DNA of 28,183 nt from an uncultured virus (IMG/VR IMGVR_UViG_3300001605_000015). Taxonomy: Duplodnaviria; Heunggongvirae; Uroviricota; Caudoviricetes. The DNA lies in IMG/VR virus record IMGVR_UViG_3300001605_000015, positions 62,001-90,183 of that record; one strand, 5' to 3'. Below, one piece after another: positions 3,726 to 18,255 of the stretch; position 1 is the stretch's first letter, and each line of letters begins with the position of its first letter. Both the position numbers and the translations under genes were made by a program. The notes under the pieces were generated by a model that had not been told where the DNA came from, did not search any database, and worked only from the letters and a program-made list of their open reading frames with translations.

Positions 3726-3760
3726 TCTCCAATAGTCTCCAATAGTCTCCAATAGTCTCC
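3726..3760 (+). repeat. 10-bp tandem repeat (TCTCCAATAG x3.5)
   Basis: read directly from sequence. Confidence 0.9.
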
Positions 3761-3804
3761 GTTGCTCTTTGTCTGCTCATTCGATCTGCCTTTTCATCCG
3801 CCAA

Positions 3805-4100
3805 CCAAGATTGTAAATGAACCTGATAATGCCAATGATGATGGAGTTGGAGAAGTTGTTGTTCTCGCCCGCAAGATTGTAAACGTGCGAAGATTGTAAA
3901 TGTAGAGGCATTGATGGTGATGAAGACAAAGAAGATGGTAATGGTGTTGTTGGAGATGATGAAGGAGTTGTTGATGGTGGTTTTGATGATGAAAGTGAAT
4001 GTATAAAAAACTGTTGGATTTGTATTGGGAATGTAGATGGTGGTGTTGATTAAGTAAGATAAAGCCCCGCGAAACTATTGGGAATGTAATTGGTGTATGG
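3805..4100 (+). repeat. C-poor non-coding WGD-triplet tract 1, with AAGATTGTAAA repeats
   Basis: runs such as TGG TGT TGT TGG AGA TGA TGA AGG AGT TGT TGA TGG TGG; AAGATTGTAAA occurs three times. Confidence 0.8.
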
Positions 4101-4144
4101 ATGTTACTTTCTTATTGCGGGGTTGTAGGATGCCGCGCTATAAC
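4099..4144 (+). promoter_or_regulatory. sigma70-like promoter with shared 19-bp upstream element
   Basis: GGATGTTACTTTCTTATTG (also at 5523-5541) runs into TTGCGG-N18-TATAAC. Confidence 0.7.
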
Positions 4145-4185
4145 ACGGTTACTAGCCGACCACAAAAACAAATGGAGTAACGCAA

Positions 4186-4500
4186 ATGACAGAACACTTC
4201 CAGCCCGTAAGATTGGTTCCCGTCAGTGAATGGACCTTCTATCTCTACAAGGTGACTTATTGGAAGGAGGATATGAACCCCGCGTTCGACCATCGCGTGA
4301 AGTATCTCGTTTCTACGGATACGCACATCGACGACGAAGTTCAGGAAGTGTGGCCGAGTGATTGGTATATCTCTTATTCTTATGAGGAAGTTTGCGAGGT
4401 TAATCGCCCTCTTCAAGTTGGCACCATTCATGGGATGCGTCTTAGCGAGAGCGCCATCTCCGCTGGTGAGCGCGAAGCTGCTGCGCGGAACCTTAAATAA
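4186..4500 (+). CDS. hypothetical early protein
   Basis: GGAG RBS; own promoter. Confidence 0.8.
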   Translation: MTEHFQPVRLVPVSEWTFYLYKVTYWKEDMNPAFDHRVKYLVSTDTHIDDEVQEVWPSDWYISYSYEEVCEVNRPLQVGTIHGMRLSESAISAGEREAAARNLK

Positions 4501-4920
4501 GGAAGTGCGATACGGCTTGCGCCTCTGATGGGGCGCGGCTACTCTCTTCTTACTAACCATACAAACCCAAAGGAGCAAAGCAATGGGATACACTATGCAC
4601 TATGGCGAGATTGCCGATCTTGCTGCTCGTGATGAAGCCGCCATCTCGGATACCAAGGACTACCTCGGTGAAGAGCGGTTCAACTTCCTCGTCTCCGAAA
4701 TGGAGAAAGCGAAAACGGCTGAGTGGATCAATCAGATGAACATCGCCTTCGCCTTCGCTGGCATCTCCGGTCTGCCGTTCCATGCCATGTGCCGCAAGTA
4801 TGCTCTCAAAGCCTATCGTGAGTGGATGCACTCCGGCGACGATGCGGTTGTTACGGACGAGCACGGCTACGTCGTCATGTAAGGAAGTGCGATACGGCTT
4901 GCGCCTCTGATGGGGCGCGG
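4498..4920 (+). repeat. 41-bp direct repeat (stop codon + promoter cassette) flanking gene 4583..4882
   Basis: TAAGGAAGTGCGATACGGCTTGCGCCTCTGATGGGGCGCGG at 4498-4538 and 4880-4920; -35 TTGCGC, followed at N17 by TACTCT or TATAAC. Confidence 0.9.
4583..4882 (+). CDS. hypothetical early protein
   Basis: AAGGAG RBS. Confidence 0.8.
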   Translation: MGYTMHYGEIADLAARDEAAISDTKDYLGEERFNFLVSEMEKAKTAEWINQMNIAFAFAGISGLPFHAMCRKYALKAYREWMHSGDDAVVTDEHGYVVM

Positions 4921-4956
4921 GTATAACTCGGTTATATCAAATCACGGAGCAAGGCT

Positions 4957-5181
4957 ATGAACATCGAAATCGAAAACCGTCGCAATGAATGGGTCGCTCA
5001 GCAACTCGGCGTCCAGAAGGTTTACCGCGACGACAACTGCTTTGTTGACGACAGCGATCCCAATGGAGTGATCCTCGCTTTTGTTACTATCGCCAGCAAC
5101 GGCGACGAAGTTCTTATACGGGCTGATGGAACCCACGGCTTTCAAGTTCCTTCCGATCTTACATTGGGTGTCACCCACTAA
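4957..5181 (+). CDS. hypothetical early protein
   Basis: ATCACGGAG RBS at 4941-4949. Confidence 0.8.
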   Translation: MNIEIENRRNEWVAQQLGVQKVYRDDNCFVDDSDPNGVILAFVTIASNGDEVLIRADGTHGFQVPSDLTLGVTH

Positions 5182-5230
5182 AGTTGCTCCGCTGACAGTC
5201 GAGCTTTGCATGGCCTCCTGTCAGTCAACT
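5182..5230 (+). ncRNA. structured RNA element, copy B
   Basis: AGTTG/CAACT stem, CTCC bulge, GCTGACAG/CTGTCAGT stem, TC bulge, GAG/CTC stem. Confidence 0.6.
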
Positions 5231-5231
5231 T

Positions 5232-5269
5232 GCCCCGCCTCCCTTAATTGGGTCGCGGGGTCTTTTTTT
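5232..5269 (+). terminator. Rho-independent terminator
   Basis: GCCCCGC...GCGGGGT followed by C and T7. Confidence 0.8.
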
Positions 5270-5274
5270 GCCAA

Positions 5275-5430
5275 AGATTGTAGATGACGACAAGATTGTA
5301 AATGTAGATGATGAAGGAGAAGGTGATGTTGTTGTAGGTGAAGAAGATGATGATGTTGTAGTTGAAGAAGATGGAGATGGAGAAGGAGGATGGAGAAGAT
5401 GATGAAGATGGTGGTGGGAATGGTGTAGTC
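5275..5430 (+). repeat. C-poor non-coding WGD-triplet tract 2
   Basis: 29 consecutive WGD triplets at 5303-5389, one extra A, then 9 more. Confidence 0.9.
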
Positions 5431-5522
5431 CCTGCCCAGTCCAGTATAGCAGATTCGAGAAGGTGGAGGAAGCCGAAATAGAACAGACGAGTGCTATAAC
5501 CAGTTATAAAAAAAATGAAGCA

Positions 5523-5567
5523 GGATGTTACTTTCTTATTGTCAGGATGTGCGGAATCACTTATCTT
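5523..5567 (+). promoter_or_regulatory. sigma70-like promoter
   Basis: shared 19-bp element plus TTGTCA-N17-TATCTT. Confidence 0.7.
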
Positions 5568-5626
5568 ATTCTTATCAGCGGAACCACGGCTGATAGTCAG
5601 AAACGCCAGATACCACGGAGGTTCAA

Positions 5627-6013
5627 ATGGCACAAGTTACGACCAAGACCCGCAAGACCCGCAAGGAAGTCGAGGCCCCTGTCCAGACCATGAAAGAGAT
5701 GGCGCAGGTCGAAGAGCGCGAGGTTCACAAGGGCAAGACGCCCAGTTCCTTCCGCATTGGCAAGTCGCTGACGCCGTTGCGCAAGGACTATCGCGCAGGT
5801 CAGATGACCGACAAGGATCATGGCTTCCTGAAAGATTGTCAGGACTTCGCTGACGCCGAGGGCAAGTTCAAGCGGCTGAATGCAGATGCAGGTCGCATTG
5901 GCCGTCTCTACACTCTCAAGTTTGTCGAGTTCGATGAGACGGGCGTGTATGACCAGTCGCAGATCGTGACACTGACGGCCAAGGGCAAGATGTTTGGCAA
6001 GCTTGCCAAGTAA
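5627..6013 (+). CDS. hypothetical early protein, paralog of 158..592
   Basis: ACCACGGAGG RBS; high identity to gp158. Confidence 0.85.
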   Translation: MAQVTTKTRKTRKEVEAPVQTMKEMAQVEEREVHKGKTPSSFRIGKSLTPLRKDYRAGQMTDKDHGFLKDCQDFADAEGKFKRLNADAGRIGRLYTLKFVEFDETGVYDQSQIVTLTAKGKMFGKLAK

Positions 6014-6036
6014 GGCAGGCGATCCTAGAAAAGTAG

Positions 6037-6064
6037 AAACCCCGCTGATGAGGCGGGGTTTTTT
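6037..6064 (+). terminator. Rho-independent terminator
   Basis: AAACCCCGC-N7-GCGGGGTTT followed by T-run. Confidence 0.85.
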
Positions 6065-6119
6065 ATTGTTGTTGGTAGAGGGAGGATAGACACGAAGTTC
6101 ACTGTCCATCCACTGTATA

Positions 6120-6280
6120 ACAGAAGGTGATGTAAGTTGTCAAGCAACAAATTTTCGTGATGGAGTTGATGATGGTGAAGAAGGTGTTGTTGGAAATGGT
6201 GTAGTACCTCCCCCTCGCCTGTCCAGTATATCAGGTGGTGGCAGGTGTAGGAACACAAAAAAGAACAGAAGGTGTTGTTT
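6120..6280 (+). repeat. WGD-triplet tract 3
   Basis: 12 consecutive WGD triplets at 6158-6193; shares AATGGTGTAGT...GTCCAGTATA with the end of tract 2. Confidence 0.75.
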
Positions 6281-6396
6281 TGAATAACTTTTTTTGCGGC
6301 TTGTCAGTGCTATAACACGTTACAACGATAGTGCGTTATGCGATCTTTTCTGCGGGGCAACGACCCCGAATCGAATAATGTGCAAGGAGCAAAAAG

Positions 6397-6753
6397 ATGA
6401 CCCACTACGCTTCCGTTACCGAGCGCCCCGCCATTGGTGAAACCTCTGGACTGGTGGACGGCATCGCCTACCACGACGAGCGCCACAGTCAGGAGGGCGG
6501 CGTCGAAACCGTCGATTGGACGACCAAGGGCTTGTATGTGACGCGGCTGCGTCTGCTGTCTGACCCCGGCTTTCCTTGGTGGGATGTGTCCTACTGCCAC
6601 GGTCGTTTGAATGGGCGGCACGTCAATGTGCAGTTGCCATTCAGCCAGCTTCCCAAGCGCGGCATGAAGGTGGCTATCATAGAAGCTGCCAAGCACGACA
6701 AGGTGTTCGCCAAAGGGATCGGTGTTTTGGATAACATCAGCACACTCTGCTGA
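6397..6753 (+). CDS. hypothetical phage protein
   Basis: AAGGAG RBS. Confidence 0.8.
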   Translation: MTHYASVTERPAIGETSGLVDGIAYHDERHSQEGGVETVDWTTKGLYVTRLRLLSDPGFPWWDVSYCHGRLNGRHVNVQLPFSQLPKRGMKVAIIEAAKHDKVFAKGIGVLDNISTLC

Positions 6754-6829
6754 TTGTCGCATTCGGGTAGCACGGCTGTTGGGGTCGTGCTACTCCTATA
6801 ACACGGGTATAAGCAAAAGGAGCAACCCC

Positions 6830-6934
6830 ATGAAAGGCACGATCCGCAACTTCCTGAAAGACCTGCTCGGCGTGTTGGCTGTGTTCGCCATCCCTGTTGT
6901 TGGTCTCTACATCGCTCACGGATTCGGCTTCTAA
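6830..6934 (+). CDS. small single-TM membrane protein (34 aa)
   Basis: AAGGAG RBS; LLGVLAVFAIPVVGLYIA. Confidence 0.7.
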   Translation: MKGTIRNFLKDLLGVLAVFAIPVVGLYIAHGFGF

Positions 6935-6945
6935 GGAGAACGGCC

Positions 6946-7146
6946 ATGATGGACAAGCCCACCTACGAACAGTTCCAAGACGAGGACGGCTATATCGACG
7001 GATATGCGTTTGACATGGCTTATGACCAGTGGCGCAGTCAGTTCCCAGATCTGCGCGAGAGTTGGTGTGGCGAAGCCAAGCCCGAACCCGTGGAGGAACC
7101 GGAGGAATCCTTGTCTGACCTGTTGTCGCGGCTACTTGCGGCGTGA
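6946..7146 (+). CDS. small acidic hypothetical protein
   Basis: AAGGAG RBS. Confidence 0.75.
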   Translation: MMDKPTYEQFQDEDGYIDGYAFDMAYDQWRSQFPDLRESWCGEAKPEPVEEPEESLSDLLSRLLAA

Positions 7147-7234
7147 CTGTGCTATAACGGGTTACAACGATTGTCCGGGGTGCTATCGTTTCCTCGGGCA
7201 ATGCTGCCCTATAACCAACCACGGAGCTTAGAAG

Positions 7235-7537
7235 ATGGAAACGAAAATCGTCAACTGCGAACCCTTTGAAGTCACCGCGAACCGCGATACTGTTGGGTTC
7301 ATCATCTACGAAATCGACTGCATCTCAGGAGATGAGCGCGGCGACTTCCATATCAACCGCGACCTTGATGGGACGGAAACGCTCGAAGCGATCATCACCG
7401 ACATCATGGAGAAGTGCGATAACGACGGCGGCGTGGAGTTGTGCGGCCACATCACCACACAGCACGGCATCTGTCTGTCGTTCCATTGCGATGCTGCCGA
7501 GTTGAGAGCGATCATTCAAAGCCCTGCCCAACTATAA
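7235..7537 (+). CDS. acidic hypothetical protein
   Basis: ACCACGGAG RBS at 7218-7226. Confidence 0.8.
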   Translation: METKIVNCEPFEVTANRDTVGFIIYEIDCISGDERGDFHINRDLDGTETLEAIITDIMEKCDNDGGVELCGHITTQHGICLSFHCDAAELRAIIQSPAQL

Positions 7538-7556
7538 CAGTAGGGACACCGACAGG

Positions 7557-7586
7557 AGATGGGGGCTGCGGCTCCCATTTCTTTTT
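7557..7586 (+). terminator. probable terminator
   Basis: ATGGGGGC-TGCG-GCTCCCAT followed by TTCTTTTT. Confidence 0.65.
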
Positions 7587-7599
7587 GTCTAAGAAACTG

Positions 7600-7865
7600 T
7601 TAAGCGGAGGTTGTAAACGCACACAGGTTGTAAACGTATGTAGGAGACACAGAAGGATGATGTGCCAGTAGGAGAAGAAGGAGGCGATGATGGAGAGCGA
7701 GAAGGAGAAGACCAGACAGTTAGTCAGACAGTTAGTCAGGCAGTTAGGCAAGGAGAAGGTGTTGATGTTGTTGAAGAAGTTGTGCCACCGAAGGAGGTTG
7801 TAAACGCGCGCAGACTGTAAACGCATGGTGGTGACGAAGGAGGCGAGATGGGCTGATTGGCGAGG
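7600..7865 (+). repeat. WGD-rich tract 4 with TGTAAACG x4 and 12-bp tandem CAGACAGTTAGT x3 (7713-7750)
   Basis: read directly from sequence; third tandem unit degenerate. Confidence 0.75.
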
Positions 7866-8289
7866 CCCTCTTTCCGACTCGAGTTCGTCCCATCCTACCA
7901 CGTCCGATCCGCGATTCGCAAGCGGAATCGTCATGCTGCATCGCGGAATCTTATCTGCCCCCTTTGCCCCTATACGGGGCGCAACCGCCCCCCCCTTGCC
8001 CCCTGCCCCCCCGGCAACCGGGGGCAAGCGACGACTCGCGGGGCAACCGTCGCGGGGCATTGCCCCCTGCCCCTATAACCGGTTATAGCGCCCCCCTGCC
8101 CCGTCGCGGCAACCGTCGCAACCGCCCCCGGCAATCGCCTGCCCCGTCCTGCCCCGTAGCGCCCCGCCTAGCGCCATTGCCCCCTTTTCTGCCCCTACCC
8201 TAGCGCAAAGCGGACTCGCCCCCCTACGGGGCATTTTTCGGGGGTCTACGGGGCATCACACTTTTTTATCTTTTCTTGCGGATTGCCCC

Positions 8290-8318
8290 TTGCCCCCGTC
8301 GCGCCCCTGCCCTAAATA
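8290..8318 (+). promoter_or_regulatory. sigma70-like promoter
   Basis: TTGCCC-N17-TAAATA, then a 5' hairpin CCGGGG...CCCCGG. Confidence 0.55.
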
Positions 8319-8389
8319 TCAATTCACCGGGGCGCAATCCTGCCCCCGGCAATTCGCCCCCAACGCGGGGCTTATACGGGAAAACCGCC

Positions 8390-8887
8390 ATGCAAACGAA
8401 AATTCGCAACCGCAAAACCGCCCCCGCAACCGTCGCAACCGAATCCGATGCGATTGCCCCCGTCGCAACCGATGCGGCAACCGTCGCGGCAACCGATACC
8501 CCCGCAACCGATACCCCTGCCCCCGTCGCGGATATTGCCTATAAAACCGCGTCACGCGATGCGGCAACCGTTACCGCCATGCGCACGAATTTTGCACAAT
8601 ATTCGGACCGCGACTCGGCTTACCTTGCCTTTTTCGGTCACGTTATGCGGGGCGCGGGGCATAGCGCGACTCTTGCGGAAATTCACAAAGCCGGAACGCC
8701 TGCCCCCGGCAAAACCGAACGTCGCGCGAATCCGTTCTATACCGGTAGCGCGAAAGCAACCGATGCGGGGGCAATCAACCGACTCGTTAAAGCCGGATAT
8801 TTCACGGTATCGGATAGCGGCAACCGACTCGCGGCAACCGATAAAGCGATTGCATCAAAACCATATAACGCAACCGCAACCGCATAA
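8390..8887 (+). CDS. hypothetical protein; likely distant third member of the gp158/gp5627 family
   Basis: YSDRDSAYL ~ MTDKDHGFL; TDAGAINRL ~ ADAGRIGRL; ATDKA ~ LTDKA; A/T/P-rich N-terminal linker. Confidence 0.75.
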   Translation: MQTKIRNRKTAPATVATESDAIAPVATDAATVAATDTPATDTPAPVADIAYKTASRDAATVTAMRTNFAQYSDRDSAYLAFFGHVMRGAGHSATLAEIHKAGTPAPGKTERRANPFYTGSAKATDAGAINRLVKAGYFTVSDSGNRLAATDKAIASKPYNATATA

Positions 8888-8897
8888 GCGAATCAAC

Positions 8898-8921
8898 GGG
8901 GCGGGGTATACCCCCCGCCCC
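8898..8921 (+). terminator. GC-rich stem-loop after gene 8390
   Basis: GGGGCGGGG-TATACC-CCCCGCCCC; no U-tail. Confidence 0.45.
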
Positions 8922-8984
8922 TACCCCCTAGCGAATCTTTCAACGATTCGCGAATCACCCACCCCCCTATCTCCGGTTGTCCGT

Positions 8985-9051
8985 AAAATTTTAGCAAGTA
9001 TTGACGGAATGACCTTTAACTAATTCTTATGGAAAATTTTAGCAAGTATTG
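8985..9051 (+). repeat. 19-bp direct repeat
   Basis: AAAATTTTAGCAAGTATTG at 8985-9003 and 9033-9051. Confidence 0.9.
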
Positions 9052-11416: not shown

Positions 11417-11566
11417 ATGGAATGGTCGTTGATCTGGATTTACGATGGCGGCTTTTCCGTTGTTGCTACTTTTCCCACATTGCTTGAATGCGTCGAAATG
11501 CTGGATTATTACATGCTTGAGTATGTTAGTCCGGCTTTTGTATGTCACAGGCAATTCTGGATATAA
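11417..11566 (+). CDS. small hypothetical protein (49 aa)
   Basis: MEWSLIWIYDGG...CHRQFWI fills the intergenic gap; no SD. Confidence 0.5.
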   Translation: MEWSLIWIYDGGFSVVATFPTLLECVEMLDYYMLEYVSPAFVCHRQFWI

Positions 11567-11580
11567 AGAGCAGGAGCGTT

Positions 11581-12237
11581 ATGGAATACTCAGCAAAGCT
11601 TATCGCAGTAACGAAGCCTCTGGATGGTAGTTCACCAGAGGACTTGATTGTTTACTGTGCGCGGGTCAGCAATCCCGCAAACCAGAATAACTACAACACA
11701 GCACTTGGGTTGTTGCGATACCTGATGCGGGAAAAGCATTGGTCGCCGTTCGAGATGTCTCACGCGGTTGTCGAAGTCGAATGCCCGCGAGACATTGCTC
11801 GGCAAATTCTTCGACATAGGTCGTTTTCGTTTCAAGAGTTTTCTCAGCGATACGCGGCTGTGCTCGGCATGATTTCTCGTGAGTTTCGGCGGCAGGATCA
11901 CAAGAACCGCCAGAACTCTATCAACGATCTGCCCGCATGGAAACGTGTGCTTTTGAACGCGCTTACGTGGGCGCTTATTCGGTATGTGAGTTTCGTATAT
12001 ACGCTTGCGTTGCGCTTGGATATTGCCAAGGAAACAGCGCGGGTCATTCTTCCAGAAGGTCTTACGATCAGTCGCCTTTACATGGCAGGCACGGTTCGCT
12101 CGTTCCTGCACTATCTAGAGGTTCGGGAAGGCAATGGGACACAGTACGAGCACATACTCGTTGCCAGAGAAATACGGAAAGCCCTGAGTGCAGAGTTTCC
12201 GGTAATCTTCGGAGATGGTCATGACAAGAACGCTTGA
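11581..12237 (+). CDS. thyX: FAD-dependent thymidylate synthase
   Basis: ARVS, HWSPFE, RHRSFSFQEFSQRY and AKETARVILP motifs; AGGAG RBS before ATG 11581. Confidence 0.95.
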   Translation: MEYSAKLIAVTKPLDGSSPEDLIVYCARVSNPANQNNYNTALGLLRYLMREKHWSPFEMSHAVVEVECPRDIARQILRHRSFSFQEFSQRYAAVLGMISREFRRQDHKNRQNSINDLPAWKRVLLNALTWALIRYVSFVYTLALRLDIAKETARVILPEGLTISRLYMAGTVRSFLHYLEVREGNGTQYEHILVAREIRKALSAEFPVIFGDGHDKNA

Positions 12238-12433
12238 GGAATGGGAAGCAGTCAAGAAGCAGCGTAGCTATGTGATGCCGAAAGCGCGTCTGTGGAAGCG
12301 GCTTTGGGGTGTGCGTCACATTCGCGCAGTATACCGCTTGTATCGTTACCTTGTTGTTTTTCGCAAGAACAACGCCTATACACATTGGTTGTGTCATGGC
12401 ATCTGGCTTGGAAAGGAAGAACGATGGCGATGA
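12221..12433 (+). CDS. hypothetical basic protein
   Basis: GGAG RBS; overlaps both neighbours. Confidence 0.6.
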   Translation: MTRTLEEWEAVKKQRSYVMPKARLWKRLWGVRHIRAVYRLYRYLVVFRKNNAYTHWLCHGIWLGKEERWR

Positions 12434-12618
12434 AATACTTCTACTGGCAGCGTTCCTTTTCCGGTCGCTGGTCTCCCGCAGCTTCGGCAGATATGCCCTC
12501 GGACAAGCGGGCAGAGGGTAAAAACCCTTTCGCTTTTGCAGGCGTTGTGACGCTTTCACAAGACGAGGGTAACATGACGCTTAAAGAGCTTGCGGAAAAG
12601 TATCCCCCTCCCCAATAA
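12430..12618 (+). CDS. hypothetical protein
   Basis: ATGA overlap; MKYFYWQRSFSGRWSP... Confidence 0.6.
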   Translation: MKYFYWQRSFSGRWSPAASADMPSDKRAEGKNPFAFAGVVTLSQDEGNMTLKELAEKYPPPQ

Positions 12619-12664
12619 CCTGTTACTATGATATAGGTGGTCAAACAAACATTGGAGGTTTGCC

Positions 12665-12838
12665 ATGACCACCTATTCAGCATCTCTACCCAAATACAGG
12701 GGTCGTAAAACCTTTCGTAATGGTCTTGCCTATCTCGGCGCTGGTCCTACTGAAAATCGTGTCTGGGTAAAAGACAACGTGAGCGGCTTGTTATCCGCTA
12801 TATACACAGGTAATGTGCTGCTGTTCACCGCACCGTAA
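12665..12838 (+). CDS. small hypothetical protein (57 aa, not in ORF track)
   Basis: GGAGG RBS; MTTYSASLPKYRGRK...LFTAP. Confidence 0.65.
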   Translation: MTTYSASLPKYRGRKTFRNGLAYLGAGPTENRVWVKDNVSGLLSAIYTGNVLLFTAP

Positions 12839-12854
12839 TAACAGGGTTACAGCG

Positions 12855-13049
12855 ATGCTCAAAGACATCGAATATCGCATAAAGCAGGCTGGTGGCATAG
12901 AGAGCTATGCTGCTGGCCTTGGTCTTTCTGCAAAGTTTGTGCGGATGGTTCTTGAGAAAAAGCGACTTCCATCTGACGTAATGATTGCTGATCTTGGTGC
13001 CTACAAATACCGTGTCTACTGTCGAACTATCGGAAAACCAAATGGGTAA
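12855..13049 (+). CDS. small HTH (Cro-like) protein
   Basis: GIESYAAGLGLSAKFVRMVLEKKRLPS. Confidence 0.6.
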   Translation: MLKDIEYRIKQAGGIESYAAGLGLSAKFVRMVLEKKRLPSDVMIADLGAYKYRVYCRTIGKPNG

Positions 13050-13578
13050 ACGAACCAACTACTCGCGCCATCCAAGAGACTTATATCCTACGCCATTGAA
13101 AGCTGCGTTGCCGTTGCTCAGCTTCATTCGCGGCAAGACCTTTTGTGAGCCTTGCGCTGCCCAAGGTCGTCTCATAAGACACTTGTCATTAGCGGCAGAA
13201 TGCGTGGCTGCTTACGACATTCATCCCTTACGCAAGACTGTAAACGCACTTGATGCGTCACAGCTAACAGAGCAGCACCTTAATGGTGCGGACATGATCA
13301 TCACCAATCCGCCGTGGCACCACAGTTTGCTCTACCCCATGTTAGACAGGTTCATAGAGCTTAGGCCGACATGGTTGCTTTTGAGCGCGGCTCTTGTGAA
13401 TAACGAGCGTTTCGGTGACAGGTATATGCCGTATTGCAGCGATGTGCAGACTGTTGGTCGCGTAAGCTGGATGAACAATGGCAAAGGCGGTTACGACGAT
13501 GCGGCATGGTATCGGTTTGATCGTTCATGGAACTACGCATATTACCGTGGGTGGAAACGTAAGTTCGACGGCAGGTAG
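13042..13578 (+). CDS. DNA N6-adenine/N4-cytosine methyltransferase
   Basis: DLYPTP, EPCAAQG (motif I), IITNPPW (motif IV). Confidence 0.85.
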   Translation: MGKRTNYSRHPRDLYPTPLKAALPLLSFIRGKTFCEPCAAQGRLIRHLSLAAECVAAYDIHPLRKTVNALDASQLTEQHLNGADMIITNPPWHHSLLYPMLDRFIELRPTWLLLSAALVNNERFGDRYMPYCSDVQTVGRVSWMNNGKGGYDDAAWYRFDRSWNYAYYRGWKRKFDGR

Positions 13579-13641
13579 TATCTAACCTATTGCCAACAAA
13601 GGCATCCTGCGATAACATTCCGTATAACCACGGGAGCTTAC

Positions 13642-13863
13642 ATGGAACACTCAAAGAAACCGCAGCCCGCGCTGCTATATCTGGTATTAGCCATCCATTG
13701 TGCTTTCGGTGGTTTGTTTGCTTTTTGCTTTAACTACTTGTTTATATGGCTAACTTTCGAACCAGTAGGAGCCTTTGTTTGCGGCGTTGCCGGGGCTATA
13801 GGTTCTTTCACACTGACGTTTTTCACCATATCTAAATCAAAGAAAAACGGACCTAAGCAATGA
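13642..13863 (+). CDS. two-TM membrane protein, holin candidate
   Basis: two hydrophobic segments and a basic C-tail; about 600 bp upstream of the lysin; holin role is inferred. Confidence 0.5.
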   Translation: MEHSKKPQPALLYLVLAIHCAFGGLFAFCFNYLFIWLTFEPVGAFVCGVAGAIGSFTLTFFTISKSKKNGPKQ

Positions 13864-14228
13864 GCAGGTCGTTTTCCATGTTTTCCTTAACCAAGCCCTG
13901 CAACAACTGTCCGTTTAGGAAATCGTCAGGTGGTTTGTTTGGGCTTCATAACGAGCGTCTAGAAGAGATATTCGAAGCGCCTTCCTTCCAGTGCCACAAA
14001 AGCGTTGACTATTCTGGCGACGATCCTGCGCACGGTGATCGACCCATACAGTGTGCGGGGCTTATCGCTCTGCAACACAAAGAAGGAAAACCAAACCAGA
14101 TAACTCAAGTAGCTAACCGATTGATCGGCTATAACCCGGTTATAATAGACGGAAGCGATGTTTTCGATAGCTACGATGAGTGCCTATCCTACCATAACCT
14201 GTGCAAACGAGGCTCCGATGAAAACTAA
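13860..14228 (+). CDS. Cys/His metal-binding protein (DUF6283-like)
   Basis: PCNNCPFR...FQCHK...CAG. Confidence 0.65.
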   Translation: MSRSFSMFSLTKPCNNCPFRKSSGGLFGLHNERLEEIFEAPSFQCHKSVDYSGDDPAHGDRPIQCAGLIALQHKEGKPNQITQVANRLIGYNPVIIDGSDVFDSYDECLSYHNLCKRGSDEN

Positions 14229-14457
14229 ATACCACAACATAATGGCAACTTTGCTACGAGAAACCGAGCAGGCGGTTTGCGTGAATGCGACCCACGCCGA
14301 ATACGGTGTGTTCCCCGGTCTATGGATTCCTAAAAGCGTTATCTTAGAGGATTCCTTGGAAGAGATTGAGGAAAGCGGCGACGGCGACGAACTGGAAATC
14401 TTCATTGCTGCTTGGTGGCTTCGCAGAAACTTTTCTGACAACCCAAACGGAAGGTAA
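14218..14457 (+). CDS. hypothetical protein
   Basis: GAGG RBS; RETEQAV...WIPKSVI pattern. Confidence 0.65.
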   Translation: MKTKYHNIMATLLRETEQAVCVNATHAEYGVFPGLWIPKSVILEDSLEEIEESGDGDELEIFIAAWWLRRNFSDNPNGR

Positions 14458-14461
14458 CGCT

Positions 14462-15133
14462 ATGCGTGACGATATACGAAGCATTCAGCAAGGCTTGATT
14501 GGCCTTGGTTACGATCTAGGACGCGCAGGAGCCGATGGTATTTACGGCCCCGCAACAGAAAGAGCGGCTCGTGCATGGATTGCGCGAACAGGACGGGAAG
14601 CACCTGCGCCGGAACCCATCTCTGCCGGAAAACTTCCCACCCTTTCTTGGCTTGAGGAAGGTAAAACTGTTTTTGGACTTCACGAGACTCGCGACAATGC
14701 CCGATTGAAAGCATGGCTTCGCTCGGACGGCAAAACTCTTGGTGATCCGAAAGCATTGCCTTGGTGCGGGGATTACGTCGAAACCGCTATCAAGAACGCA
14801 CTTCCGTCAGAGCCTTTCACTGGACCGCTTGGCGAGAATCCTTATTGGGCAAGAAACTGGATTTTCTTTGGTAGGACCGTAAATCCCTGCTATGGTTGCG
14901 TTCTTGTGTTTCAGCGTCCTAGCGGCGGTCATGTCGGCTTTGCTGTTGGTGAGGATACCACTGATTACTACGTCCTCGGAGGCAATCAAAGCGACTCTGT
15001 GAACATCGTTCGTATTTCAAAGAGTCGTTTGCTTCCGTCTGGTGCGCGGTGGCCTTCCACGCATGGCGGTGACGGAGTAAAGCTGCCGATCATGAGTCCC
15101 GGTTCGATCCCTCGTTCAACCAACGAGTTCTAA
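14462..15133 (+). CDS. endolysin-like: PG-binding domain plus NlpC/P60 (TIGR02594-type) peptidase
   Basis: GADGIYGPATERA; PWC...GGHVGF...VLGGNQSDSV. Confidence 0.88.
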   Translation: MRDDIRSIQQGLIGLGYDLGRAGADGIYGPATERAARAWIARTGREAPAPEPISAGKLPTLSWLEEGKTVFGLHETRDNARLKAWLRSDGKTLGDPKALPWCGDYVETAIKNALPSEPFTGPLGENPYWARNWIFFGRTVNPCYGCVLVFQRPSGGHVGFAVGEDTTDYYVLGGNQSDSVNIVRISKSRLLPSGARWPSTHGGDGVKLPIMSPGSIPRSTNEF

Positions 15134-16280: not shown

Positions 16281-16664
16281 ATGAAATTCGGCGTAATCAG
16301 CAGCCGTGACCGAAACGGCGAAGTTTTCGAAAATTCTGACTATGTTCAGAAATGTCTTACTCAGGTTGTAAAGGGTTTCTGCCCCAACCAAGGCAAAGGA
16401 ACCGTGATTATTTCGGGAGGCGGTCGCGGCCCCGAAACCATTGCTATCGAATATGCGACAAAGAACCATTTCGAGGTTGAGAAGGTCGTTCCGCATATCA
16501 AGACGCTTGGTATCGAAAAAGCTTTCTTGTCGCGGAACCGTTCGATCATCAACATGTGTGACATCCTGATCGTGTTCTGGACTGGCGAGAACCCGACGAT
16601 CACGGCGGCGCTGAATGATGCAGCGTTCCTTGAACGTCCGGTCGTCATGTTCCCTATCGTATAA
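16281..16664 (+). CDS. SLOG-superfamily protein (DUF2493/YspA-like)
   Basis: ISSR...IISGGGRGPE..A..YA...RNRSII..CD..IVFW. Confidence 0.75.
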   Translation: MKFGVISSRDRNGEVFENSDYVQKCLTQVVKGFCPNQGKGTVIISGGGRGPETIAIEYATKNHFEVEKVVPHIKTLGIEKAFLSRNRSIINMCDILIVFWTGENPTITAALNDAAFLERPVVMFPIV

Positions 16665-16686
16665 CACGGTTATAAAGGATGCTGCT

Positions 16687-18255
16687 ATGTCTACAAAAAA
16701 GTGGACCCACCGGGACGTTCAAGCGCCCCGTCTAAGGATACTTCTTGATCCTGTCTACGTTCAGGTTGCCAACCTCGGCTCTTCATCCACCTACCAGAAA
16801 TACGTATCCCTGACCCGCGAACTCGTGAAGCGCGGGCATTTTGTATACTGGATGCTGCCTGACGTTGACTACATCGCAAACCCTATCGAAGATCATCCGA
16901 ACGTAGGGATCATTCGAACTGAGTATATTCAGGATCAGTTTGTTGTGGACGGTCTTGTAACTGACTCGTTCTTCAACATGTTCAATCGTATCGCGGGCAA
17001 GTATCACATCGACGTGGTATGCACTTCTCGCACAGGTGCCGCAAACATGATCAAGCGGGTTTTGGAAAGCCCTCGTTTTCATGACAACGGCGGCAACTAC
17101 ACCGATAAGCACTATGGCTTGCCTATGGTCGTTATCGAAGAGTTTCCGCAGACACGCTTTCGTTCACATGTTGGGCAGGCTTACTGGCTTGCTCAATGTC
17201 AAGGCTACATGTCTAGCGACCTGACCGTTTTCATCTCTGACCATAACCGTTCCGAGGTTGTTGAGGGAATGGTGCCTATCTACCGTCCTAACACCATTCA
17301 GGACTGGATAAATCGCTGCACTGTAATTCCGTCAGGCATTGAAACTGCGGAGCTTGACACCTACTACCAAACTGATCGCTGGAAGCACGAAACAGGATTT
17401 CGCGTTATCAGCGTCGGTCGTATCATGGGCGTCAGCTACACGCAGTTTCTTGATTGGAGCCGTATGCTTTACGCAGCAGGCATGGATGCCAAGCTTATAG
17501 TTTCCTTGTCTGGAAAACTCGGTGGTCCCATGAAGAAGCGGCTCAGCAAGGACGGGATCACGTTTACCTCAGACAAGCCGTATTATCAGTTGATCGAAAA
17601 CAACCCTCGTGTTGCATTCCTGAAACTCTTGCGAACCGTTCACGCAGGTATCGTTCCCATGTCGCACCTTGACTGCCCTGTAGGCGTCAGCGAGGCGCTA
17701 TACATGGGTGTTCCGCTGGTGATGCCGGAAGCGGATTACCAAAAGACGTTCTTCCCAGACTACCCATTCGTTGTAAAGCCGTCTGACCGCAACGGATTGC
17801 TGGGCCATCTACAATTCATCAAGGAAAACCCCCAAGAAGCTCGTGACATGATCGAACCGTGGCGGCAGCATTTGAAAGGAACCTTCGATGCTCCTACGAA
17901 CATTGCGAAGCTTGTTGACGAGCTTGAAGAGGTTGCCAGAAAGCCTTTGCCTAAGTTCAAGACGAGCGGTGCTATACTTGAGTTCCTTACCGAACTCAAA
18001 GGTGAACGGTATACCTTTGATGACGTGGTGGCGTATCTGCGCAAGTGTGGATTCATGGGTATCTCCATCGGGGACTTGGGTATTCGTGCAACTTGGACCT
18101 ATGGTCGAGGAGCTATCCACCATGCCATGCGATATGTCGGATACGTAGATTTGTGCGACGGTCCAGAAGATGCCTTTGTTCGTCGTGATGTGTTTGAGCG
18201 CATGAACCAGACCACCCCTTCCTCTACTCGTAAAACGCGGAGAAAAGCAAAATGA
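16687..18255 (+). CDS. GT-B fold glycosyltransferase
   Basis: LVKRGHFV, VFISDH, VIPSGI, ISVGRI, GVSEALYMGVPLV motifs. Confidence 0.8.
   Translation: MSTKKWTHRDVQAPRLRILLDPVYVQVANLGSSSTYQKYVSLTRELVKRGHFVYWMLPDVDYIANPIEDHPNVGIIRTEYIQDQFVVDGLVTDSFFNMFNRIAGKYHIDVVCTSRTGAANMIKRVLESPRFHDNGGNYTDKHYGLPMVVIEEFPQTRFRSHVGQAYWLAQCQGYMSSDLTVFISDHNRSEVVEGMVPIYRPNTIQDWINRCTVIPSGIETAELDTYYQTDRWKHETGFRVISVGRIMGVSYTQFLDWSRMLYAAGMDAKLIVSLSGKLGGPMKKRLSKDGITFTSDKPYYQLIENNPRVAFLKLLRTVHAGIVPMSHLDCPVGVSEALYMGVPLVMPEADYQKTFFPDYPFVVKPSDRNGLLGHLQFIKENPQEARDMIEPWRQHLKGTFDAPTNIAKLVDELEEVARKPLPKFKTSGAILEFLTELKGERYTFDDVVAYLRKCGFMGISIGDLGIRATWTYGRGAIHHAMRYVGYVDLCDGPEDAFVRRDVFERMNQTTPSSTRKTRRKAK

Follow-up and report, generated by a model that had tools for sequence, protein, structure and literature searches.

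A strand-specific ban on WGD trinucleotides in an early phage operon beside the packaging site

An early operon in the final 28 kb (28,183 nt, hereafter the window) of a 90-kb (90,183-nt) phage genome is written without WGD trinucleotides on its sense strand. The genome is that of an uncultured virus (IMG/VR record IMGVR_UViG_3300001605_000015) whose structural and replication genes resemble those of the Rhodobacter capsulatus RcF-cluster phages and of Agrobacterium phage JP1. The WGD class comprises TGA, TGG, TGT, AGA, AGG and AGT, and reads as HCW on the opposite strand; coordinates are window positions unless marked as genome. The WGD-free stretch, termed the zone, lies directly 3′ of the last of four non-coding, C-poor arrays (arrays 1-4) built largely from these words. 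One possible explanation, advanced here tentatively, is that the mRNA of the zone has been written to escape a guanine-anchored ribonuclease or RNA binder specific for single strands. In the literature on RcF phages, on JP1 and on strand-specific trinucleotide avoidance in phages, no description of the pattern was found, and the passages of the RcF paper that deal with the cluster do not mention it (PMC8601537).

A WGD-free zone on one strand

A preliminary description, made from the sequence alone, had noted that positions 7885-8977 carry none of the six words on the + strand and that their reverse complements are present there. Counting bore this out, with 0 WGD words on the + strand and 68 on the − strand. 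The longest WGD-free interval of the + strand measures 1096 nt (window 7883-8978; genome 69883-70978), compared with 79 nt for the runner-up + strand gap in the whole genome and 141 nt for the longest gap on the − strand. Three null models were used to set the expectation for the zone: the genome-wide + strand rate (0.082 per base) predicts 89.6 words, mononucleotide shuffles predict 59.4 ± 5.9 (minimum 41, 2000 shuffles) and dinucleotide-preserving shuffles predict 26.0 ± 3.2 (minimum 14, 2000 shuffles). The observed count lies below every shuffle, and is not the frequency expected from base composition.

All degenerate 3-mers on both strands were then ranked by the improbability of their longest word-free gap (−ln P). 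WGD on the + strand took rank 1 in the window phage, with a score of 93.7. The scan also covered the RcF-cluster phages RcDurkin and RcTiptonus, JP1, Rhizobium phage RHph_Y1_11 and three unrelated controls (RcZahn, DLP_5 and SIO-2), in which the top scores reached only 28-34 and belonged to other motifs. Over a pooled set of 19 zones (18,985 nt), WGD occurs 0 times on the + strand and 1546 times on the − strand. The words CAG, GAG and GTG are likewise absent from the window zone, but are merely depleted over the pooled zones (observed/expected ratio, O/E, 0.5-0.6), where GGAG is over-represented (26 observed, O/E 1.96).

The ban holds in all three reading frames and in untranslated DNA, always on the sense strand of the genes concerned, which rules out a codon or tRNA effect. 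Because the WGD content of the − strand is normal, readers of duplex DNA and DNA shape are ruled out as well. A purge visible on one strand instead points to a reader that acts on RNA, on single-stranded DNA (ssDNA) or via a polymerase. Restriction offers the nearest precedents at the level of DNA: the first-step-transfer region of phage T5 lacks EcoRI sites, and the EcoP15I sites of T7 lie in a single orientation. Like the zone, these are local or orientation-specific purges of a nuclease target in an early region; however, the motifs are 5-6 bp long and are read on the duplex, whereas the − strand of the zone keeps the normal WGD rate. Classical restriction-site avoidance was rejected, since a duplex target predicts depletion of both strands and the counts fall to zero on one strand only, both here and in the pooled zones.

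The purge reaches the protein. The zone gene, P0001, starts at 8390 and contains 0 WGD words, while 5000 synonymous resamplings with genome codon usage gave 26.6 ± 4.0 (minimum 12). As had been pointed out from the sequence, it encodes no Trp, uses no GAG, AGA or AGG codons and has GGGAAA upstream of its ATG. An AlphaFold2 model based on a 41-sequence alignment (mean predicted local distance difference test score, pLDDT, 78.6) has a disordered stretch of 50 N-terminal residues, and residues 51-160 score 82-96 per 10-residue block. Foldseek returned weak matches (best E = 0.31), the majority of them winged-helix regulators, and the structure rows of the Atlas belong to the PaaX, MarR and DtxR types (template modelling, TM, scores 0.53-0.60). 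No Pfam or PHROG family matched P0001, and it is not recognisable as a nuclease. As a lead, and short of a family assignment, the model suggests that P0001 may be a winged-helix DNA-binding protein with a disordered tail. Homology to the product of the open reading frame (ORF) at 5627-6013 was considered and is not supported (BLASTP E = 0.044).

Relatives of the zone and a second vocabulary

The pattern recurs in relatives, the opposite of what would have counted against the preliminary description. WGD on the + strand again took rank 1 in RcDurkin, RcTiptonus and JP1, with free intervals of 1449, 1431 and 1424 nt, respectively; in RcDurkin and RcTiptonus the interval reaches the last base of the record. 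Triplet-phased arrays stand immediately upstream of the zone in all three phages. Seventeen metagenomic loci with relatives of the zone protein (L014-L018, L020 and L022 among them) were compared, and in 15 of these the gene has 0 WGD words on the + strand versus 14-32 on the − strand; the two most divergent loci have 4 and 2 words on the + strand of the gene. Arrays lie upstream of the zone wherever the contig extends that far (L014, L018 and L020). Within IMG/VR, a protein-anchored scan with the zone protein returned no relative, and a scan for the 17-nt box pattern of RcDurkin and JP1 gave four stretches that we take for chance matches, their longest WGD-free gap being 161 nt.

The footprint is equally sharp in the proteins. 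Public metagenomes hold 88 homologues of the zone protein, and 0 of the 88 contain Trp. All 177 Met residues in these homologues are followed by Arg, Gln, Pro or Leu, a rule that results when ATG is always followed by C, given that codons of these four amino acids begin with C. The zone-gene alleles of RcDurkin and RcTiptonus share 34-61% identity between flanks of 93-100% identity, and both alleles are WGD-free. The purge is under strong, long-lived selection.

Two sets of observations in the relatives bear on the kind of molecule that is read. A further WGD-free block, 350 nt long and separate from the zone, covers one small gene in RcDurkin and RcTiptonus; it extends from between the −35 and −10 elements of the gene to its terminator loop and is not at a DNA end. 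An isolated block with the size of a transcription unit favours RNA. Furthermore, the few WGD words tolerated in the zones of relatives include the Shine-Dalgarno sequence GGAGT in L014-L017, the start codon context ATGG in L022 (together with one further word inside the coding sequence), a TGG right after the terminator in L014, L015 and L017, and a word in the 3′ arm of a terminator stem. Tolerance where RNA would be covered, paired or absent likewise favours RNA. The zone operons of relatives also encode a small membrane peptide.

A different vocabulary is purged in RHph_Y1_11, a distant relative that shares the terminase type (38% identity). Its local layout is alike, combining a terminator, an early gene, boxes of the TTGTAAA type within G/T-rich DNA and a C-rich motif with AAATT-type repeats after it. 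Here the zone is free of GBY over 771 nt (53262-54032; L054 13262-14032), with 0 words on the + strand versus 63 on the − strand and a runner-up GBY gap of 100 nt. The coding sequence has no G followed by a pyrimidine, and Ala, Val and Cys are all absent from 10 of the 11 members of the zone-protein family; the exception, the orthologue in RHph_TM16, has 17 Ala and 18 Val and is encoded by unpurged DNA full of GBY. The G-pyrimidine steps left in the RHph_Y1_11 leader stand in self-complementary words such as GTGCAC and GCGCGC, which fits protection by base pairing. The purge is seen in at least two unrelated proteins, with two guanine-anchored vocabularies, and is present or absent among orthologues. 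Lineage dependence of this kind, with gain or loss of the specificity, is more easily reconciled with a sequence-specific enzyme than with a universal machine. A triplet ban that leaves none of 88 homologues with Trp, and nearly all of a second family without three further amino acids, is among the strongest nucleotide-level constraints on a protein-coding gene known to us, and implies an undescribed reader.

Comparison of RHph_Y1_11 with RHph_TM16 was tried as a route to the gene for the reader, and was abandoned as the genomes are too divergent: only 114 of 339 + strand ORFs had matches in TM16, at a median identity of 52%. Upstream of the RHph_Y1_11 zone the top enriched classes are TGT, KTG and GTD, not GBY, and the array itself is a run of TGG and TGT repeats. 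At ~53075-53095 (L054 ~13075-13095) an octamer is followed by TGG/TGT repeats and an A-free run of ~47 nt; we take this octamer, which opens the G/T-rich stretch, to be identical to E. coli Chi.

A possible RNA reader, and rivals at the packaging end

These observations are compatible with a model in which the last early operon before the packaging site (pac) uses a restricted vocabulary so that the single-stranded form of its sense strand, most likely mRNA, would escape a reader acting on unpaired W-G-D. Such a reader would most plausibly be an endoribonuclease, or else an RNA-binding silencer. It might be supplied by the phage, for shut-off of host and early mRNAs in the manner of T4 RegB, or it might be a host toxin RNase that the product of the operon must outlast. 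The zone operon, with its predicted winged-helix protein and, in relatives, the small membrane peptide, would then be expressed while other messages are under attack. Placed after terminators and before the next early promoters, the arrays may concentrate the target, such that read-through RNA would be cut or captured there, and could act in cassette insulation or as a decoy. Many ribonucleases are anchored on G, as are both vocabularies (W-G-D and G-B-Y). Our guarded suggestion is that these are 'nuclease-proof' phage operons, in which an as yet undescribed, guanine-anchored reader of single-stranded RNA could set expression classes by trinucleotide vocabulary, and in which the arrays act as pads for cleavage or as decoys. 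Escape from it would then have meant rewriting two or more unrelated early proteins, with loss of whole amino acids: Trp under the ban on WGD, and Ala, Val and Cys under that on G-pyrimidine. The purge itself, with its strand, extent, conservation and cost to the protein, is observed; reading at the level of RNA, a nuclease as the reader and the role of the arrays are inferred.

A number of observations weigh against this proposal. Pfam searches of 109 genome ORFs and PHROG searches of 17 ORFs named no ribonuclease. The purge covers DNA expected to be poorly transcribed, namely the spacers between units and the stretch from the last hairpin to the pac region (55 nt here and ~185 nt in JP1). 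It is also kept inside the terminator stems of the main zones, which a reader of single-stranded RNA would not need. The remaining phage genes have WGD at the normal 8%, so that an extra assumption is required, either timing of the nuclease or its neutralisation by the zone product. Moreover, with the arrays upstream of predicted promoters, their transcription would depend on read-through or on promoters that escaped recognition. Array enrichment is not WGD-specific, and the tolerated WGD exceptions come from few independent lineages.

Known ribonuclease systems provide partial parallels. Messages without ACA escape MazF, and T4 RegB cuts GGAG in early mRNAs. As in the zone, the expression class is set by a short motif in single-stranded RNA, and a message free of the motif is immune to an endoribonuclease. 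The zone differs from both systems in that a class of six triplets (~8% of positions) is affected, untranslated and inter-unit DNA is purged, and amino acids are changed. Unlike the target of RegB, which is GGAG in Shine-Dalgarno regions, GGAG is kept and enriched in the zones, and CGGAGC ribosome-binding sites occur in RcDurkin and JP1. In vertebrates, ZAP reads CpG and RNase L reads UpA in viral RNA; there too a very short word marks RNA for attack and viruses purge the word, but these purges are genome-wide and statistical, whereas the purge of the zone is absolute, confined to one operon and found in a bacteriophage. Two other activities were rejected as the reader. RNase E target avoidance fails because the zone keeps A/T-rich runs and the target sites are AU-rich rather than W-G-D, the mapped Rhodobacter sites being AU-enriched according to passages of PMC6238624. 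A known anti-phage activity, described in part of PMC11543638 as relaxed G-specific with no consensus motif, was dismissed since the purge of one operon would not protect a genome with WGD throughout the remainder of its length.

If the reader is a ribonuclease or RNA binder, its specificity is already stated (W-G-D or G-B-Y), arrays and zone would be its sensitive and resistant natural substrates, and the system would bring the logic of CpG/ZAP and UpA/RNase L to bacteria in absolute, one-operon form. A reader that acts on ssDNA, on modified DNA or at an origin would still represent a new way of marking an operon beside the packaging site. The footprint can be searched in proteins alone, as Trp-free sequences with every Met followed by Arg, Gln, Pro or Leu or as sequences with no Ala, Val or Cys, and such searches could uncover more operons.

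The 3′ boundary of the zone coincides closely with the packaging site. According to passages of the RcF paper, these phages use P1-type headful packaging, with the left end defined at pac and the right end variable (PMC8601537). The free interval of RcDurkin extends to the end of the record, and at the left end WGD reappears at bases 3-5; in the window phage it reappears at 8978, just past the point (~8974/8975) that a by-eye alignment equates with the pac terminus. Beyond the zone lies a direct repeat (Table 1) that may contribute to terminase binding; repeats of a similar AAAATT type mark the left genome end of relatives, and short direct repeats past the zone are found in every lineage. An ejection or translocation brake, one of the candidates put forward in the preliminary description, is disfavoured, since by our own inference headful packaging from pac in the RcF relatives leaves the entering end not fixed. 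A first-entering segment of the T5 type is unlikely given the variable right end reported in the same passages, the ends having been determined in relatives only.

The position of the boundary, within 3-4 nt of the terminus, and the passage of the purge beyond the last hairpin suit a reading based on ssDNA and recombination, which we regard as rather unlikely. The end left by the pac cut would be resected to a + strand 3′ tail, the arrays would stabilise RecA-family filaments, perhaps with Chi-like AddAB stops, and the zone would be the stretch where filaments or an ssDNA nuclease cannot act. This gives the best account of the 3-nt period. While distances between successive WGD words (lags) of 2, 3 and 4 nt are equally frequent genome-wide, in the arrays of three phages a lag of 3 is dominant and a lag of 2 nearly absent. 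RecA binds 3 nt per monomer, and its stability is highest on TGG repeats and lowest on CCA repeats, as stated in passages of PMC3763553; TGG is a WGD word and CCA belongs to its complement class. The phage encodes a RecA-like protein and a PD-(D/E)XK (Cas4-like) nuclease, and the array of RHph_Y1_11 reads as TGG/TGT repeats. Like RecA-preferred TGG repeats and the TG-rich islands of Chi, the arrays are phased G/T-rich triplets on one strand with a 3-nt unit (PMC3763553, in part), and their period and strand relative to pac would fit this reading; they differ in that the six WGD words are all used in mixture, A and T being equally frequent, and in being sited between early cassettes. The purge is harder to accommodate. 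Filament stability is set by runs of triplets, so that the removal of isolated WGD words is unpredicted, and RecA biology predicts no single-triplet purge of the kind seen in the zone. Equally unpredicted are the isolated 350-nt block of RcDurkin and RcTiptonus, which lies away from a DNA end, the words tolerated at Shine-Dalgarno and start codon, and a zone in RHph_Y1_11 that excludes GBY yet contains TGG.

A third reading, which takes up another candidate of the preliminary description and is distinctly unlikely in our estimate, invokes a modification roadblock. On both strands, a phage enzyme would modify the C of HCW (or the G of WGD), and marks on the template strand would impede host RNA polymerase; on incoming virion DNA the zone would be the sole operon open to transcription, and the arrays would serve as roadblocks placed after terminators. 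Strand specificity would thereby arise without a strand-specific enzyme, and the order of terminator, array and promoter, the purge of promoter-proximal and untranslated DNA and the lineage-varying vocabulary would all be accounted for. The phage encodes a glycosyltransferase-like protein, SLOG/YAcAr proteins, a dCTP-deaminase-like protein and ThyX, and WGD words hold about one third of + strand G (7393 words versus ~22,900 G, the latter extrapolated from the G share of the window). However, no methyltransferase, TET/JBP, DpdA or queuosine-precursor gene was present among the ORFs scanned, and other early cassettes combine host-type promoters with normal or high WGD. The RcF genomes, moreover, were sequenced without difficulty being reported in the passages on them (PMC8601537).

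Phased arrays between early cassettes

Between 3.8 and 9.0 kb the + strand repeats a module composed of a terminator, one or two boxes, an array, a promoter region with a GCTATAAC-type element and small genes (Table 1). The box reads AAGATTGTAAAYG and occurs in one or two copies per module, with pairs spaced 17 nt apart. Terminators had been placed ahead of the second, third and fourth tracts in the preliminary description, and all three were recovered, the first with its hairpin at 5232-5261. Profile searches gave no family matches for the ORFs of cassette A.

Table 1. Features of the array and zone region, in window coordinates
Feature	Position	Strand	Description
Array 1	3801..4059	+	Non-coding, C-poor tandem WGD; 59 WGD in 259 nt; 35 lags of 3, 2 lags of 2
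Direct-repeat boxes AAGATTGTAAAYG	3812, 3878, 3895 (span 3812..3902)	+	5′ edge of array 1; last pair 17 nt apart
Cassette A, three small ORFs	4186-4500, 4583-4882, 4957-5181	+	Ordinary WGD, z −2.0 to −0.3
Cassette A intrinsic terminator	5232..5268	+	Hairpin + U7; −21.6 kcal/mol, z = −3.4, 0/200 shuffles as good
Array 2	5262..5468	+	Box TGTAAATG at 5297; 29-triplet run 5303-5389; 138-nt C-free stretch
Cassette B, 128-aa ORF	5627..6013	+	Highest WGD density of any gene in the genome (0.142; 55 words in 387 nt), z = +3.0
Cassette B terminator	6035..6063	+	Terminator scan; scored on − strand too
Array 3	6114..6284	+	36 WGD; 24 lags of 3
Cassette C	6397..7537	+	ORFs 6397-6753, 6946-7146, 7235-7537; short ORF near 6831-6934
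Cassette C terminator	7554..7583	+	Terminator scan
Array 4	7617..7819	+	47 WGD; 25 lags of 3, 12 of 4; flanked by box pairs 7612/7629 and 7799/7816 (17 nt apart)
WGD-free zone	7883..8977	+	39% C; 18 of the 26 + strand copies of GCAACCG and 17 of the 27 of TGCCCC in the genome
Perfect palindrome CTATAACCGGTTATAG	8073..8088	.	In zone leader; of the type of the TATAAC-N-GTTATA sites upstream of other early genes
Short hairpin + T-run	8218..8240	+	Divides zone into two units; weak, fold no better than shuffles, z = +0.4
Promoter-like TTGCCC-17 nt-TAAATA	8290..8318	+	Read by eye; absent from consensus-scan calls
Zone gene P0001, 165 aa	8390..8887	+	Disordered Ala/Thr/Pro-rich N-terminus and winged-helix-like C-terminal domain (predicted)
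Strong G/C hairpin 3′ of zone gene	8898..8921	+	−22.6 kcal/mol, z = −3.7; no U tail; without WGD
pac-homologous position	8968..8980	.	TATCTCC/GG here vs TATCTCT/AT in RcDurkin, homologous point ~8974/8975; by-eye alignment
Exact 19-nt direct repeat, two copies	8985-9003, 9033-9051	+	Just past zone; candidate pac/terminase-binding repeats

The claim that four non-coding tracts are built from WGD words was upheld by counting, with 64, 47, 34 and 59 words on the + strand (the first tract taken as 3805-4100) versus 7, 1, 11 and 12 on the − strand. WGD words cover 63%-90% of the bases of the array tracts, WGC occurs 0-4 times per tract, and C makes up 2-14% of the + strand. Positions 5303-5389 indeed form 29 consecutive in-phase triplets among which each of the six words appears; no other run in the genome is as long, and the − strand maximum is 4. 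The lag is 3 nt in 43 of the 53 listed steps of array 2, and in none is it 2. The possibility that the arrays encode a low-complexity protein region was rejected: 4-nt steps break the phase (12 in array 4), arrays 1 and 2 do not share the frame that follows the box, and stops interrupt each frame of the RcDurkin arrays. Antisense small RNAs were considered, as extended −10-like sequences lie on the − strand to the right of arrays 2 and 3, and were abandoned, since these have no counterpart to the right of the one RcDurkin array inspected.

An unbiased enrichment test showed that broader C-poor classes (RDR, WKD and WRD) fit the arrays at least as well as WGD, which ranked third in two of seven arrays of the WGD lineage and fell outside the six listed classes in the other five. 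The idea that the vocabulary of the arrays is the forbidden vocabulary of the zone therefore holds only in part, since the broader classes outscore WGD in the arrays. The preliminary description had proposed one strand-polar WGD reader for both. Strand polarity is supported by a purge that is exact, conserved and extended into amino acids; arrays and zone may share one factor or have separate causes. At gene level, per-gene WGD z-scores against synonymous resampling were unimodal over 126 ORFs (mean −0.63, sd 1.77), with the zone gene represented in this run by an overlapping ORF in the wrong frame, and WGD density was accordingly rejected as a label of gene class. Only ORF 5627-6013 is enriched, and several large genes are depleted.

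The composition of the arrays invites a reading in which Rho controls antisense or read-through RNA. The antisense RNA of an array would be G-free with C at every third base, an ideal Rho utilisation (rut) site, and its sense RNA, C-free, would be invisible to Rho; with all genes on one strand, antisense transcription would be harmful. Antisense rut sites had been among the candidates of the preliminary description, and they fit the low C content of the arrays on the + strand (2-14%, including the 138-nt C-free run). The proposal leaves the removal of every single WGD from the zone unexplained, the antisense RNA of the zone keeps many YC steps, and the arrays of RcDurkin and JP1 contain 8-12% C on the + strand; we consider it highly improbable as an account of the pattern. 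Rut sites are unstructured RNAs of ~80 nt, rich in C and poor in G; such a composition is found in the array antisense and, at 39% C, in the sense leader of the zone.

Ribosome binding was examined as well. WGD words resemble Shine-Dalgarno and start sequences, the perfect Shine-Dalgarno complement being three tandem WGD words, and the arrays could be ribosome sponges while the zone avoids spurious initiation. Windows that pair with the 16S tail at ≤ −6 kcal/mol are 3-6 times as frequent in the arrays as in the genome. However, mononucleotide-shuffled arrays were equally rich in most of the nine arrays tested, and the zones of two of three phages keep anti-Shine-Dalgarno matches at or above the genome average (1.0-2.6% versus 1.0-1.4% of windows at ≤ −8 kcal/mol). 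Together with the excess of GGAG in the pooled zones (O/E 1.96) and the exclusion of TGT and AGT as strictly as AGG, these results make this reading scarcely credible.

The cumulative GC-skew minimum falls at genome 65806 (window 3806), at the start of array 1, and in JP1 at 87095, just past the zone; the maxima lie at ~28 kb here and ~30 kb in JP1. The minimum is a possible origin signal, partly made by the arrays themselves. A further rival, which we hold to be quite improbable, takes the arrays as origin elements, with initiator boxes and a phased unwinding or priming region, and the zone as a lagging-strand desert for a DnaG-type primase. Phage primases recognise lineage-specific trinucleotides, and GBY includes the T7 and T4 primase sites; a G-centred WGD, on the other hand, would demand a pyrimidine-initiated primer. 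The skew minima are in keeping with this rival, the phage encodes a Toprim and zinc-ribbon primase and a DnaB-like helicase, and the paired direct-repeat boxes beside a phased array recall the layout of DnaA boxes and DnaA-trios. Passages of PMC8287927 define the latter as at least three trinucleotides with a conserved central adenine, (NAN)n, next to DnaA boxes. In such a system, tandem initiator boxes stand no more than ~10-16 bp from the array. The arrays share with this system tandem boxes followed by a strand-specific array of 3-nt period near a GC-skew minimum. They differ in number and length (four arrays of 170-260 nt each), and the paired boxes 17 nt apart that abut arrays 1, 2 and 4 are not of DnaA-box type. 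Identity with DnaA-trios was rejected, since the sole phase that allows a central A (D-W-G) has it in just 14 of 29 triplets, the other phases having a G or mixed centre. The skew minimum is moreover created in part by the arrays, a 350-nt desert is too short to affect Okazaki priming, and four origins within 4 kb are unexpected.

The boxes of the array region belong to a dispersed motif, RAGRYTGTAAAYG, with 25 copies on the + strand versus 7 on the − strand of the genome. Its sites in the window are 3812, 3878, 3895, 5297, 7612, 7629, 7799, 7816, 13239 and 25525; copies outside the array region are mostly intragenic and, with few exceptions, lie in the x-V-N-x frame. In RcDurkin and RcTiptonus, GGACAGTAAATG has 15 copies on the + strand versus 1-2 on the − strand, and JP1 has the related ACAGTAAATG. 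Promoter, processing-site and binding-site roles are all conceivable for the motif. The sequence CTCCAATAGT is present in three exact tandem copies at 3727-3756, immediately 5′ of array 1, and nowhere else in the genome. Elements of the sequence GCTATAAC, which we take to match the alphaproteobacterial −10 consensus, lie upstream of early genes at 4137, 5493, 6309, 7151, 9098, 10000, 10756, 14128 and 19755. Many of them fall within TATAAC-N(1-3)-GTTATA palindromes (15 in the genome), which have an operator-like look.

Other features of the genome were recorded in passing. The dCTP-deaminase-like, ThyX, glycosyltransferase-like and SLOG/YAcAr genes (genome 31684-32235; window 11542-12237 and 16615-18255) hint at altered nucleotide pools or DNA modification. 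The genome contains 15 N characters (3803-3813, 11787, 11878, 39697, 39700, 55470 and others), with none within the region of the window studied here. At genome 55094-56480 (L012 15094-16480), neighbouring ORFs of 162 and 298 aa match consecutive parts of one Pfam model and together make up a HerA-like helicase; the split could be due to a frameshift, an intervening element or a sequencing error. The large terminase has 670 aa in the window phage (19698-21710) and 1046 aa in RcDurkin (11620-14760), with tblastn covering query residues 116-651, and the size and alignment may reflect an insertion in the RcF gene, for example an intein.

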